Positions 1-7,015 of a DNA stretch of 64,000 nucleotides are shown here, piece after piece. The notes under the pieces were generated by a model, which did not search any database, was not told the origin of the DNA, and saw only the letters and a program-made list of their open reading frames with translations. Source of the stretch: Acinetobacter phage vB_AbaS_TCUP2199. A program made the translations under genes and the position numbers. Position 1 is the first letter of the stretch; every line of letters starts with the position of its first letter. Location: sequence record ON323491.1; one strand, written 5' to 3'.

Positions 1-267
1 ATGAGCACATACCAAAGCACAATAGCTTGAGTATATCGAGTAGAACGCCACTAATCGAGAGACTGGATAGTATACCTTCAACCGTAACTATCCGCTAGTC
101 CGAACCACTAATTAACAATTTGAAAAGGTCGTTATCTATATATCTATAGTAATGTCTTATATTCGAGAATCGGACTTATCCACAGTACCGACGGTATAAA
201 CATTATGTATATAGTTAATTACCAAAATAACGGTTTTATACTAGGCTAGCACTCAACACTCAATAGT

Positions 268-284
268 GGCCGTGGCCGTGGCAA
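268..284. repeat. 17-bp direct repeat GGCCGTGGCCGTGGCAA, copy 1; contains overlapping GTGGCCGTG units
   Basis: Exact 17-mer also at 1239-1255. Reverse complement of the unit, CACGGCCAC, recurs at 323-331, 1039-1047, 1051-1059. Confidence 0.8.
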
Positions 285-343
285 TGTCTGACTCATTAAC
301 ACATTATCAGACAATGCCACTGACACGGCCACAGATACACACA

Positions 344-375
344 TAAGGCATTGCCCACAAGTGGGCAATGCCTTA
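344..375. repeat. Perfect 15-bp-arm palindrome TAAGGCATTGCCCAC-aa-GTGGGCAATGCCTTA
   Basis: Read directly from the sequence. Overlaps the GTG of listed ORF 361-660. Confidence 0.8.
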
Positions 376-426
376 CTAACATTCAATGTTATAACCAAGT
401 TTAAACACTTTTTGGAGTACACACTC

Positions 427-660
427 ATGAATACAATCAATGACAAAGTATTAAATACTTTAAATACTCTTTCCGCTACTGGAAAGAATGCCACTATCCT
501 TTTGACCATTGCCAAAGCAATTAATGCAGATAAAGCATTACCAGCATGGGCAGAGGAAACACTAGGGCAAAAGTTCTTTATCAATGTATTACATCATCGG
601 AGCGTACCATTGCAAAGGTATGTAAAGATGATTCATATCATGATTTACGTTCTATTGTGA
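427..660 (+). CDS. Hypothetical small protein; trimmed from listed ORF 361-660 to the ATG preceded by GGAG
   Basis: GGAG lies 9 nt upstream of ATG 427. Its stop TGA overlaps GTG 657 of the next frame. Confidence 0.3.
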   Translation: MNTINDKVLNTLNTLSATGKNATILLTIAKAINADKALPAWAEETLGQKFFINVLHHRSVPLQRYVKMIHIMIYVLL

Positions 661-1025
661 ATACATGGAACAAAACGCAACGTTTAACAGTGGGCCAATA
701 TGAGACACTTAAAACGTTAATGACTATCAAAGTATTTCAAAATAATGAAGTATTAAAAGCCATTAAAACACAAGCGGAATTAGTGGCAGCGATTACAGTC
801 ACTAAAGCTTTGTTTGGTTGCCATGATGTGACTATAACGGGCAATGAAGTACAAAAGGCCAAAGCTAAAGATACGGATTATTTCAATAATCTTGAGTCTT
901 TCAAGGCTGGTATTGACACAGTAAACAATGCCGATGATTTAGTCTTGATGATGGAAATTATCCAAGCTCGTTTGGAATCTCAAGTAAAAGCCCAATCAAA
1001 AGCACATCATAAAAAAGTGGCATAA
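546..1025 (+). CDS. Hypothetical protein; alternative start GTG 657 is coupled (GTGA) to the stop of 427-660
   Basis: Listed 159-aa ORF. It overlaps 427-660 in another frame, so the true start is uncertain. Confidence 0.35.
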   Translation: MGRGNTRAKVLYQCITSSERTIAKVCKDDSYHDLRSIVNTWNKTQRLTVGQYETLKTLMTIKVFQNNEVLKAIKTQAELVAAITVTKALFGCHDVTITGNEVQKAKAKDTDYFNNLESFKAGIDTVNNADDLVLMMEIIQARLESQVKAQSKAHHKKVA

Positions 1026-1033
1026 TCCTTGCC

Positions 1034-1057
1034 ACTTTCACGGCCACTTTCACGGCC
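1034..1057. repeat. Tandem 12-bp repeat CTTTCACGGCCA x2, immediately upstream of the RBS of the small ORF 1071-1196
   Basis: Read directly from the sequence. Same CACGGCCAC core as the other copies. Confidence 0.75.
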
Positions 1058-1070
1058 ACAAAGGTTGAAT

Positions 1071-1196
1071 ATGAAATATGTCCTTTATGTAACTTTGGCA
1101 GTGGCGTTAGGCTACTGCCTTTTCCATAACGCAGCTCAAGAGATACAATACCGCGACGAACAAACGCAACGCCAAATAATGGAAATTGACCAATAA
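1071..1196 (+). CDS. Candidate 41-aa hydrophobic miniprotein (MKYVLYVTLAVALGYCLF...)
   Basis: AAGG RBS 6 nt upstream; one TM-like segment; intrinsic terminator directly downstream. Below the 60-aa ORF-track cutoff. Confidence 0.3.
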   Translation: MKYVLYVTLAVALGYCLFHNAAQEIQYRDEQTQRQIMEIDQ

Positions 1197-1199
1197 CAA

Positions 1200-1226
1200 A
1201 AGCAAACATTAACCCGTTTGCTTTTT
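1200..1226 (+). terminator. Intrinsic terminator hairpin AAAGCAAAC-loop-GTTTGCTTT followed by TTTTTAT
   Basis: Stem plus T-tract read from the sequence. Confidence 0.55.
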
Positions 1227-1238
1227 TTATTGGAATCG

Positions 1239-1255
1239 CGTTTTAGCGGGCCGTG
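1239..1255. repeat. 17-bp direct repeat GGCCGTGGCCGTGGCAA, copy 2
   Basis: Exact match to 268-284. Confidence 0.8.
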
Positions 1256-1436
1256 GCCGTGGCAAAACCCATATAACTGATTTTTTGAGGAATTTTGAAA
1301 TGTCGCACAAATTTTTTGAGAATTTGCCAAGTAAAGACTTGCCTTGGTTTAGAACTTACACTTGCGAAAATTTTGACTGGGCCACATACACGGCCAAGAT
1401 TACAAGCAAGATGAAGCATTTAGAAAAGCTTTTAAT

Positions 1437-1697
1437 TTGCCGTTTGATGTGCATTTCACGCTTGAAAATATAGCGCTTGCAAATGCAAGTGCCATTGCTT
1501 TGTTACGTCAAAATGAAAATGAATGGTTAGATAAAGGGCTTATCATTGACCAAGCGCGGGTATTAAAACAGAGATTGGAAGGGGCATGGATGCAAATTGA
1601 GTTAATGCCTGATTATCATTTTTATTTTAAAAATAGAGAATCAGCATTATCTAAAGATGTTTATTCTATTTTAAATATTATCTTGAATGATATTTAA
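1437..1697 (+). CDS. Hypothetical protein
   Basis: Listed 86-aa ORF. Overlaps the alternative small ORF 1300-1473 (GAGGA RBS), so which one is real is unclear. Confidence 0.25.
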   Translation: MPFDVHFTLENIALANASAIALLRQNENEWLDKGLIIDQARVLKQRLEGAWMQIELMPDYHFYFKNRESALSKDVYSILNIILNDI

Positions 1698-1826
1698 ACT
1701 AAATAATTTTAGAATAAATTTTGATCAATTATTATCTTTTATTATAAATTGGCACGGCTAGAACAAGTGATGTTCGCCGTGTCAATAGAATTTTTCTGTT
1801 TGATCATTATTTGTACCGAAATTTTT

Positions 1827-1930
1827 GTCATTTCGGCCAATTTGGTCAAAAAAGAAGCTCATTATATGAAAAGATATTTTGATCGAAATTTGCACGATTT
1901 CGGCCAGAATGCTGTTTTCGGCCAAAAAGC
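1827..1930. repeat. Three copies of TTTCGGCCA(A) within about 100 bp
   Basis: Copies at about 1829, 1895 and 1914. GGCC core as in the other repeat families. Confidence 0.6.
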
Positions 1931-1959
1931 AGAAATTTAAAAAGTCCCATTTTGCTTGG

Positions 1960-2128
1960 GTGTAACTTTCTAGGATAATAATTTAATTTTTTTTTTTTCA
2001 TGCGAGAGAGAAGTGAAAATATTAGAATATATATACAGTAAATATATAAATGTAACAGAATATGTAAAATACATCTCTCTTACACAAAAAAGAAAAATTG
2101 TGATTTATTATCCGAGAAAGTTACACTC
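1960..2128. repeat. ~22-bp inverted repeat (GTGTAACTTTCTAGGATAATAAT / ATTATTATCCGAGAAAGTTACAC, one mismatch) flanking an AT-rich core with a T13 tract and (TA)n runs
   Basis: Arms at 1960-1982 and 2107-2128. Nested GAGAGA/TCTCTC inverted motifs in between. Confidence 0.7.
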
Positions 2129-2139
2129 TTGAAAAATAA

Positions 2140-2540
2140 GGGAAAAGTGAAAAATGGGCCGTGTCTGAGCGTGTGAAAGTGGCAGTATTTTAGGCTGAAT
2201 CAGTACCCGAACCCCAAATTTGCACCACAATAGTGCAAAAATGCAGATTCGGGGCCGACAGATAACCCTAACCCGTACCAATTTCTCAACCCCAACCCGA
2301 ACCATGCTCAAAACCACGCTGCCACGCTGCACCATTTCACGTATTTTCGCGCTAAACAGTGCAAAATGAATTACCCTACGTTAAGCCCTTAAAAACGCTT
2401 ATACGCAAAACCACGCGCAAATAGCGAAATACGACTTGTGAAGACGCAAAAACCCCACTCAAGACGAAAATTTCGCGCTGAACCCCGACCAAAACCAAAA
2501 TTTCGCGCCCAACACGAAATTTTGCACCTATTGCCGACCA
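2140..2540. repeat. GC-richer block with degenerate short repeats (AACCC/CCCGAACC units; AAATTTCGCGC x3; TTGCAC...GTGCAA dyads)
   Basis: Read from the sequence. The only ORF is the 75-aa - strand ORF 2108-2335, judged spurious. Confidence 0.5.
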
Positions 2541-6757: not shown

Positions 6758-7015
6758 ATGAATCAAACCAACACGGGTCATGCAGTAATTACCCACGAAC
6801 AAATTTATGAAATGGTCAAAGCTGGCGAATCCGACTTGCTTTTAAAATGTGTAATGATTGTCCGTGATGCTTTGATTGATGAAGTATTAGTACACACCCG
6901 CGGGGAATTAGCCCCCGCTGCAAAAATGTTAGGCATACAACGTGGTACTTTAAGAACATATATCCGTGCCAAAGGCAAGCCAATCAAAACCCAATTAAGA
7001 CCAAACATAAAATAG
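6758..7015 (+). CDS. Small DNA-binding protein with a C-terminal Fis/NtrC-type HTH
   Basis: C-terminal ELAPAAKMLGIQRGTLRTYIRAKG resembles the Fis-family HTH signature (…AxxLGIsRxTLyrKlkkyG). Confidence 0.6.
   Translation: MNQTNTGHAVITHEQIYEMVKAGESDLLLKCVMIVRDALIDEVLVHTRGELAPAAKMLGIQRGTLRTYIRAKGKPIKTQLRPNIK

Follow-up and report, generated by a model that had tools for sequence, protein, structure and literature searches.

Short GC-rich repeats in the terminal repeat of Acinetobacter phage vB_AbaS_TCUP2199 and the stem-loops they are predicted to form

Families of short GC-rich repeats are found at positions 246–1960 of a 64,000 nt stretch of the genome of Acinetobacter phage vB_AbaS_TCUP2199 (ON323491.1), here called the window, where they surround three small genes, here gp1, gp2 and gp3. 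A first-pass annotation of the window had read the repeats as operator or iteron sites for one DNA-binding protein. Comparison with related phages places them in what appears, from homology, to be a three-gene early cassette that an EAb13-like phage carries in its 2.2 kb direct terminal repeat (DTR). The repeats pair with one another, and related genomes keep the positions and show covariation of paired bases. Most of the repeats are the two GC-rich sides of conserved stem-loops, together with extra copies of those sides that arose by slippage. We propose, with moderate confidence, that they are cis-acting RNA stem-loops that set the processing, stability and relative expression of gp1–gp3.

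Over its first 3 kb, the window is related to the Acinetobacter baumannii phages Mystique (94.7% identity), fJoAci01 (93.3%), EAb13 (84.8%) and fJoAci04 (83.7%), and beyond these four the phage collection held no matching record, whether the comparison was made with this DNA or with gp1 as protein. Three of the four records annotate DTRs, with lengths of 2238, 2182 and 2177 nt established by PhageTerm or comparable software, and both DTR copies in EAb13 are identical. The right boundary of the annotated DTRs (...CTCTTACAC|AAAAAAG) corresponds to window position 2085, and window position 1 to approximately position 147 of the relatives' genomes. By homology, positions 1–2085 (plus strand) are thus part of the DTR, the first ~146 nt of which are outside the window. 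Because the right boundary maps to 2085, all of the repeats at 246–1960 are inside the terminal repeat, and the suggestion that physical genome ends might map here holds in the sense that the whole region belongs to a DTR ending at 2085. As annotated, the EAb13 genome starts with the DTR, continues with rightward early and DNA-metabolism genes to ~51 kb and then with leftward structural genes, the large terminase last, and closes with a rightward 250 aa gene and a ~890 aa Prim-Pol/DUF5906 primase-helicase directly before the right DTR copy.

The comparison set comprised about 14 related genomes and contigs. More diverse relatives were reached via the gp1 protein (P0001–P0008, loci L040–L048) and the most distant ones via the Prim-Pol protein (L110, L111 and L112, with Prim-Pol identities of 61%, 38% and 33%, respectively). 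The latter three retain the order terminase (minus strand), small gene, Prim-Pol/DUF5906 gene (plus strand), non-coding stretch and first early genes. At least three diverged relatives with that synteny were seen, mostly in read-archive assemblies, and many Prim-Pol homologues are on contigs of ~57–83 kb. When a 321 aa neighbour protein was used to query IMG/VR no relatives were returned, and exact 18-mer matches there were unrelated single matches. A conserved 17-mer of the terminus returned one unrelated match and no relative from viral contigs, and one real relative (L102) among 60 matches from metagenomes.

The repeat motifs are strongly non-random when compared with shuffled sequence. The 17-mer GGCCGTGGCCGTGGCAA occurs exactly twice in the window, at 268–284 and at 1249–1265 (10 nt from the 1239–1255 first reported), and had no match in 100 shuffles. 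There are eight copies of CACGGCCAC in the 64 kb (0.18 expected), six of which are in the first 1.3 kb, at 324, 1039 and 1051 on the plus strand and at 266, 272 and 1253 on the minus strand; the reverse-complement unit described at 323–331 is present, and should read 324–332. Tandem Repeats Finder (TRF) returned a period-12 array of 2.4 copies at 1031–1059 and period-6 arrays at 266–282 and 1249–1263. The 12 bp tandem noted earlier directly before the gp2 ribosome-binding site (RBS) therefore exists, with 1031–1059 replacing the slipped coordinates 1034–1057. All three copies of TTTCGGCCA reported within 1827–1930 were located, at 1831, 1898 and 1916 (0.49 expected), and the enrichment of GGCC, roughly estimated at ~11 sites, was borne out by a count of 14 in 246–1960 (3.4 expected; genome-wide ~3.8 per 2 kb).

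The phased units are near-restricted to the first ~2.2 kb. This segment holds three of the four copies of GCCAC-N-GCCAC (shuffle mean 0.09), four of the six of GCCAC-N7-GCCAC (0.08) and five of the six of CAC-N3-CAC-N3-CAC (0.44), and the matches beyond it are Gly-codon runs inside genes. Over the first 2 kb, GCCAC/GTGGC reaches a density of 8 per kb; the mean of the whole window is ~2 per kb. Read in hexamers, the sites are GTGGCC GTGGCC GTGGCA at 266–284, TGCCAC TGACAC GGCCAC at 315–332, TGCCAC TTTCAC GGCCAC TTTCAC GGCCAC at 1030–1059 and GGGCC GTGGCC GTGGCA at 1248–1265, and a coding copy in gp3 at 1380–1397 reads GGCCAC ATACAC GGCCAA. So read, the repeat families are one family of lineage-specific, GC-rich GTGGCC/GGCCAC units with the core GTGGC/GCCAC. 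The relatives L040, L042 and L043 (70–74% gp1 identity) contain no GGCC where 5–10 are expected in 3–8 kb, and retain GTGGC/GCCAC units at homologous places. The units are therefore conserved in related genomes, but the conserved core is GCCAC and not GGCC, as had been assumed; GGCC is a property of the close clade. Since the motifs are both over-represented and kept in relatives, the outcome that the first-pass annotation had named as its refutation did not occur. In the 64 kb window as a whole GGCC is not avoided (121 copies, ~129 expected). Other palindromes are: observed and expected numbers are 0 and 65 for CCGG, 0 and 30 for CAGCTG, 0 and 18 for TGGCCA, 0 and 15 for GTTAAC, 0 and 13 for GGTACC, 0 and 12 for each of AGTACT and CTTAAG, and 1 and 14 for CATATG, and GATC and TCGA are likewise depleted. 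This restriction-type avoidance extends over the whole window and is also seen in L040, L042 and L043.

The first stem-loop, here called the leader hairpin, is upstream of gp1 at 266–332 (plus strand), downstream of the promoter block described below and between a conserved block, AACGGTTTT-R-TACTA, and the gp1 RBS. Its 26 nt arms (266–291 and 307–332) are 88% complementary and enclose a 15 nt loop. In the predicted fold (−39.2 kcal/mol, z −7.5) they pair in runs of 9, 1, 6 and 7 bp with small internal loops between. There is no T-run, and hence not the GC stem plus U-tract of an intrinsic terminator. The element does have the form of an RNase III-type site, an imperfect duplex of ~20 bp between cistrons of an early transcript, and equivalent stems are present in all lineages. 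A search of Rfam 15 returned no match at the gathering score, and the only sub-threshold hits were to microRNA precursors, which are generic long hairpins.

Hairpins with z-scores of −4.9 to −7.8 occupy the same place in six other lineages (fJoAci01, L046, L040, L042, L043 and L047). The stem is AAGTGGCTGT/ACAGCCACTT in L040, AACTGGCTGTGA/TCACAGCCAGTT in L043, where the arms are CTGGC/GCCAG, and AGGACTTAG/CTAAGTCCT in L047, a relative with 33% identity. Strong hairpins with wholly different stems are also found directly upstream of the first gene in L110, L111 and L112. Thus, even where the arms are unrelated, as in L047 and L110–L112, pairing is kept: throughout the sampled family it is the structure, and not the sequence of the stem, that is conserved at this place. 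The outer stem, compared in seven genomes, has 84.5% of its cells paired, and three of its pairs have changed on both sides, including C-G to U-A in L040, L042 and L043 and G-C to C-G in L043. For covariation the score was 0.194, compared with 0.081 for shuffled alignments, and was matched by none of 500 shuffles. Per-sequence folds and arms cut by hand were used here, because RNAalifold, given a MAFFT alignment in which the right arm was out of register, returned a spurious structure.

A second hairpin follows at 344–375 (plus strand), with a perfect 15 bp stem (TAAGGCATTGCCCAC/GTGGGCAATGCCTTA). It is found in only part of the close clade, being absent from EAb13 and fJoAci04, and has a different loop in L046. 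In L111, the leader of the first gene contains a 10 nt tandem, CAATCCAAAC, in four copies. Hairpin promoters of the N4 type were considered and set aside, since they have much smaller stems and loops than those seen here and no giant virion RNA polymerase is named in the EAb13 annotations examined.

The gp1 stop codon is in the loop of a 9 bp hairpin at 1014–1038 (plus strand; AAAGTGGCA-TAATCCT-TGCCACTTT). This hairpin was present in eight of the eight genomes compared, with 96.8% of cells paired. An Ala codon contributes its synonymous third base to the closing pair, which varies with it between UA, AU and GC. It is not a standard intrinsic terminator, as it is followed by only TTT in the window, and by TTTT or TTTTT in L040 and L043. 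The 12 nt tandem at 1031–1059 (plus strand; GCCACTTTCACG, 2.4 copies) appears to be an amplified copy of the 3′ arm of this hairpin. One CTTTCACGGCCA unit is present in EAb13, fJoAci04, L045 and L046, two in the window, two plus a variant third in fJoAci01 and three plus a variant fourth in Mystique. Besides the hairpin arm, no unit is present in L040, L042 or L048, and L043 has two copies of GCCACTTTTTAA and one of GCCACAGCCAC. Variation of this kind in unit number among relatives is a signature of slippage.

The second copy of the 17-mer is in an array at 1248–1265 (plus strand), between the gp2 terminator and the gp3 RBS, that is complementary to the units at 1039–1059. In the minimum free energy (MFE) fold of 1000–1300 (z −5.2), 1039–1047 pairs with 1253–1261 and 1054–1057 with 1249–1252, forming a long-range stem that encloses gp2 and its terminator. 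Folded individually, fJoAci01, Mystique, EAb13, L045 and L046 clearly show this pairing, and fJoAci04 shows it less clearly. Distant relatives without extra units have a local hairpin, GGGCAC-TTTTT-GTGCC(C), at the place of the array.

The three genes were reconstructed from relatives. gp1 (427–1025, plus strand) encodes 195 aa in five named relatives and L045/L046 and 198–199 aa in L040 and L042. In the window, a 1 nt deletion at 588 has broken it into open reading frames (ORFs) at 427–660 and 546–1025, so that 427–660 and 657–1025, previously listed as separate small ORFs, belong to one gene of 195–199 aa. The window also has a 12 nt insertion at 985–996. gp2 (1071–1232, plus strand) corresponds to the 41 aa ORF at 1071–1196 that had been described, which has a hydrophobic N-terminus and is followed by the expected intrinsic terminator (1198–1225) with a T-run. 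gp3 (1300–1697, plus strand), given earlier simply as a unit at these coordinates, is a single gene of ~132 aa in relatives and is frameshifted in the window at 1399, where a T is missing from a T-run. Mystique gp3 has an extra G in a G-run, at 1378. As both gp3 slips are in homopolymer runs they look like errors of sequencing, but the variation may be real.

No Pfam or PHROG family was found for gp1, gp2 or gp3, and none of the DTR proteins has a recognisable DNA-binding family or fold. gp1 was considered as a binding protein and rejected, the AlphaFold2 model being all-helical (pLDDT 68.7) with no fold match in the PDB (best E-value 4.4). In T5, the first gene of the terminal repeat, dmp, encodes a deoxyribonucleotidase. 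A PHROG match of fJoAci01 gp1 (L001, 577–1164) to a 5′-3′ deoxyribonucleotidase was below threshold (E-value 0.03) and was not trusted, and the fold search did not support it.

A promoter-like block (TTGTAC-17/18-TATCAT, with an AT-rich tract upstream) that faces the cassette is found in all lineages, about 110–150 nt from the left end. It corresponds to positions ~90–152 of the relatives' genomes, and the window begins inside its −10 element (window 1–2), which is TATAGT in L043. The block is probably a sigma-70-like promoter and the first to be used after DNA entry. A consensus scan revealed no convincing plus-strand promoter at the repeat sites. The array at 1248–1265 is at the place expected for the −35 element of a gp3 promoter, and no recognisable −35 was found there. 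Reading GTGGCC-GTGGCC-GTGGCA as a sigma-54 promoter was rejected by inspection, as it does not fit the −24/−12 spacing.

Further structures are found in the untranslated tail of the DTR. A hairpin after gp3 (1748–1786, plus strand; arms GGCACGGC/GCCGTGTC, followed by a T-rich tract) is kept in the window, the four named relatives and L045. The three TTTCGGCCA copies are in small hairpins at 1816–1927 (plus strand). Two of them are 3′ arms (CCGAAAT/ATTTCGG at 1816–1836 and CGAAAT/ATTTCG at 1884–1902) and the third is within a T4-CGGCC-A4 palindrome at 1915–1927, though the fold instead pairs GUUUUC with GAAAAG near 1868. In distant relatives these copies are replaced by repeats of TTTTGCCA or AGCCAG. 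The DTR end at 2085 is straddled by a large, imperfect inverted repeat (1949–2137) with 50 nt arms and an AT-rich centre. It folds as single-stranded DNA with z −5.9, and its core arms, GTGTAACTTTCT...AGAAAGTTACAC, are kept even in distant relatives such as L040. This repeat is a candidate for a right-end cleavage or nicking signal.

Outside the DTR, 70–100 nt past its end, further units of the same family (2155–2187, minus strand; TGCCAC TTTCAC ... AGACAC GGCC) form no local hairpin. The segment at ~2190–2530 is untranslated, C-rich and G-poor (GC skew down to −0.35), with AACCCC-type repeats, and a 30 nt tandem repeat is present at 2451–2508. As its composition resembles that of a Rho-utilisation region, it may be a gate that separates the DTR genes from the early genes that follow. 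Directly upstream of the first post-DTR gene is a 63 bp near-perfect palindrome at 2549–2611 (27 nt arms, 96% complementary, and a 9 nt CG-rich centre). It exceeds all other inverted repeats of the window in length and is kept in the window, the four named relatives and L045.

The cassette genes would be read rightward from the sigma-70-like promoter near the left end. As all of the genes face rightward and the promoter is conserved, the stem-loops would be on the earliest transcripts. There they could serve as processing or stabilising sites of the RNase III kind, as between the early genes of T7, or alternatively as weak terminators or attenuators tuning the relative expression of gp1, gp2 and gp3. 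The 9 bp stop-codon hairpin with its short U-run resembles a weak terminator, an attenuator or a 3′ stabiliser, and the array at 1248–1265 could close the long-range stem around gp2 and its terminator. Words shared among the sites would then reflect duplication and homogenisation of arms rather than recognition by one protein.

Several observations weigh against this account. The promoters, transcript ends, cleavage and effect that it invokes are inferred from sequence. The covariation amounts to two or three independent events in arms that were cut by hand, and template-switch correction of quasi-palindromes could mimic selection for pairing. The fJoAci01 leader hairpin is more stable on the minus strand (−41.7 kcal/mol) than on the plus strand (−25.4 kcal/mol). 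Some units have no local partner, namely those at 1248–1265 and 2155–2187, a left-end GTGGC-N-GTGGCTAAGTC and the GNCAC arrays upstream of the DTR. Finally, when 64 kb was scanned, hairpins with GTGGC/GCCAC arms were found only in and next to the DTR, which hints at a DTR-specific role over general mRNA punctuation.

It is possible, if doubtful, that the units are instead double-stranded DNA sites for a sequence-specific protein that acts on the terminal repeat. Candidates would be a small terminase or packaging factor marking the DTR boundaries, the 891 aa primase-polymerase/helicase, with the units as origin iterons or in priming, or an early-gene regulator, for example the Fis-like helix-turn-helix (HTH) protein. 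The restriction of the unit family to the DTR and its flanks is consistent with such a role, as are the sites that lack a local hairpin. One of the latter, a conserved GTGGC-N-GTGGCTAAGTCATTGA ~55 nt from the left terminus, has no significant fold. In every lineage, the 160 nt upstream of the DTR left end contain four to eight strictly oriented GNCAC units in ~6 nt phase (background 0.5), an 8- to 16-fold enrichment. The units are GGTCAC and GGCCAC in Mystique, GCCACA in L040, GACACT in L042, a 24 nt unit containing GACAC in L043 and CACGG-TTCTTG in L110, and the Prim-Pol/DUF5906 helicase gene adjoins these arrays. Beyond the right end of the DTR there are inverted GTGNC units, strong in L043 (eight) but weak in the close clade (two or three).

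Within the DTR, however, arm sequence varies across the family while pairing is conserved, and in L043 both leader arms have left GCCAC in a compensatory manner, while other GCCAC sites of that genome stayed. Family and fold searches found no binding protein among the DTR proteins. The Fis-like protein at 6758–7015, proposed earlier as a binder, has a real match to Pfam HTH_8 (E-value 1.5e-5), yet nothing links it to the repeats. Replication-origin iterons, as at least three direct repeats of ~17–22 bp in one orientation with helical phasing and an AT-rich element, were not found: the units measure 6 or 12 nt, point in either direction, vary in copy number and are spread over 2 kb between genes, which misfits classical operators as well. 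Nor is the same motif present at each site across relatives, as it would be for an operator, since the leader arms differ by lineage. Operator or iteron sites for one protein, as the first-pass annotation had it, are thus not supported; most copies are arms of inverted repeats in which pairing, not sequence, is conserved.

The GNCAC array is followed by a block, AAAATTTTTAGAACGGAGAT, and ~12 nt on by the left terminus, GTCGCA. The block is present in the close clade, L040, L042 and L043, and L110 has only a diverged version; arrays and blocks are located at 2690–2854 in L003, 30100–30235 in L044 and 3380–3501 in L040. Together they are a candidate left-end recognition signal. The outer GNCAC/GTGNC arrays, with units recurring in the DTR, might conceivably be a recognition or priming system for making the terminal repeat, an idea that we consider rather unlikely. 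A concatemer junction has a single DTR copy, and the Prim-Pol/helicase or a subunit of the terminase would initiate DNA synthesis that runs into this copy and thereby doubles it. The pRN1 Prim-Pol enzyme, which has the same architecture, needs GTG in its template (PMC2034472). If this were true, the arrays would be a new kind of end-formation signal for long-terminal-repeat phages. Two other features were seen near the left end. A perfect DnaA box, TTATCCACA, is present at window 176–184 and in Mystique and L046, with TTAACCACA in other close relatives. An exact complement of Escherichia coli Chi, CCACCAGC, is 9–16 nt from the left end in EAb13 (L002), fJoAci04, L045 and L046; fJoAci01 and Mystique lack it, and Chi-like end protection was set aside.

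Inverted repeats could also act as single-stranded DNA hairpins or cruciforms in replication, DTR duplication or concatemer processing, for example as bottom-strand primosome loading or pause sites. The fJoAci01 leader would suit this, being fully stable only on the minus strand, via G-T wobbles, and when the leaders of five close-clade sequences were folded, their minus-strand energies were uniform (−36.8 to −44.6 kcal/mol). The inverted repeat with the largest span (1949–2137) also straddles the DTR end. However, the strand bias is reversed in L042, where the plus strand is favoured, and because strand preference differs in this way we consider a single-stranded DNA role unlikely. Loops of 7–15 nt and internal mismatches disfavour cruciform extrusion, and the hairpins are precisely at cistron boundaries, over a stop codon and just 5′ of RBSs, as RNA elements would be.

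It is similarly improbable that the repeats are neutral products of slippage and local duplication of GC-rich words in an AT-rich non-coding region, with a vocabulary narrowed by restriction-site avoidance. Copy number of the 12 and 6 nt units does vary among near-identical genomes, the 344–375 hairpin is present or absent among close relatives, and many GC-rich palindromes (CCGG, CAGCTG and TGGCCA, above) are banned. But hairpin positions are kept, with compensatory changes, down to 33% protein identity. In fJoAci01 the arms are invariant while the intervening spacer has diverged, and the loss of GGCC in the distant clade kept pairing, GGCC/GGCC becoming GGCT/AGCC. A T5-like injection-stop signal for two-step DNA entry is very improbable: although the layout is T5-like, with a long DTR carrying the first-entering genes and a repeat-rich untranslated region that overruns the DTR end (bioRxiv 10.1101/866236), the paired DnaA boxes of T5 are absent (TTWTNCACA occurs once in the DTR, at 176–184, and 10 times in 64 kb, with 14 expected), protein family searches detected no A1, A2 or dmp homologues, the GGCC-type repeats are mostly in the left and middle of the DTR, away from its inner end, and two-step entry is unreported for these phages.

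Against multidrug-resistant A. baumannii, EAb13, Mystique and fJoAci01/04 are candidate therapeutic phages with a broad host range, and their early genes are almost all unannotated. The Mystique paper is silent on terminal repeats, termini and packaging, and the abstract of the EAb13 announcement gives direct terminal repeats of 2,177 bp with no mention of short repeats. As neither the paper nor the abstract describes them, the description of the repeats appears to be new for the EAb13-like group. The repeats are now placed in the terminal repeat, as conserved structural punctuation around three pre-early genes. The promoter block, leader and intercistronic hairpins, boundary palindrome and outer arrays together provide a map of candidate places for early transcription, processing and end formation. 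By themselves, the repeats are an expected type of feature for a phage early region, not demonstrated sites of one protein. If the outer arrays do turn out to signal end formation or priming, the family would be a small, 2.2 kb model of how long terminal repeats are made.

The alpha iterons of P4 are initiator sites of replicases that combine Prim-Pol and superfamily 3 (SF3) helicase domains. The arrays here resemble such sites in that a Prim-Pol and DUF5906 gene adjoins oriented arrays with GTG/CAC every ~6 nt. Unlike sites of the pRN1 type, array sequence differs by lineage and the internal copies are explained by pairing, and the need for GTG is that of pRN1 and applies here by analogy only. 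T4-type phages have promoter-early stem-loop (PeSL) cassettes, and there are also intergenic palindromes like repetitive extragenic palindromes (REPs). As here, these are related stem-loops between small early genes, and their copy number or presence varies among close relatives. In contrast to PeSL, there is no promoter consensus beside each copy, and only a handful of copies are present, in one 2.2 kb region. Dunn and Studier reportedly described, in 1983, short-repeat arrays (SRL and SRR) that flank the terminal repetition of T7. Those arrays are likewise very short repeats immediately outside the terminal repeat, in the concatemer junction, but the units here are of ~6 nt and the GNCAC type, and they are met again within the DTR, where they form arms of hairpins.

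The injection stop signal of T5 consists of eight DnaA or DnaA-like boxes, paired, in large inverted repeats of the untranslated region of the DTR (Davison, bioRxiv 10.1101/866236). A long DTR that carries the first genes is common to both phages, but here it is 2.2 kb rather than about 10 kb, the sequences are unrelated, and the paired boxes and the A1, A2 and dmp homologues are lacking. In T7, RNase III processing hairpins are found between early genes (R0.3, R0.5, R1 and others), with one before the first gene. The T7 stems are unrelated to these in sequence; here the stems are inside a 2.2 kb DTR and share hexamer words, RNase III cleavage is a proposal, and the 9 bp hairpin is too short for a classical site. 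The stem-loops are otherwise like those of T7 in form, with internal loops, a length of roughly two turns of helix and no U-tract, and in setting, as they occupy the leader of the first transcribed gene and separate small early cistrons at the left end, on what would be host-polymerase transcripts. Structured repeats that punctuate the first-entering genes of a terminally redundant phage are, as a kind of feature, already known.

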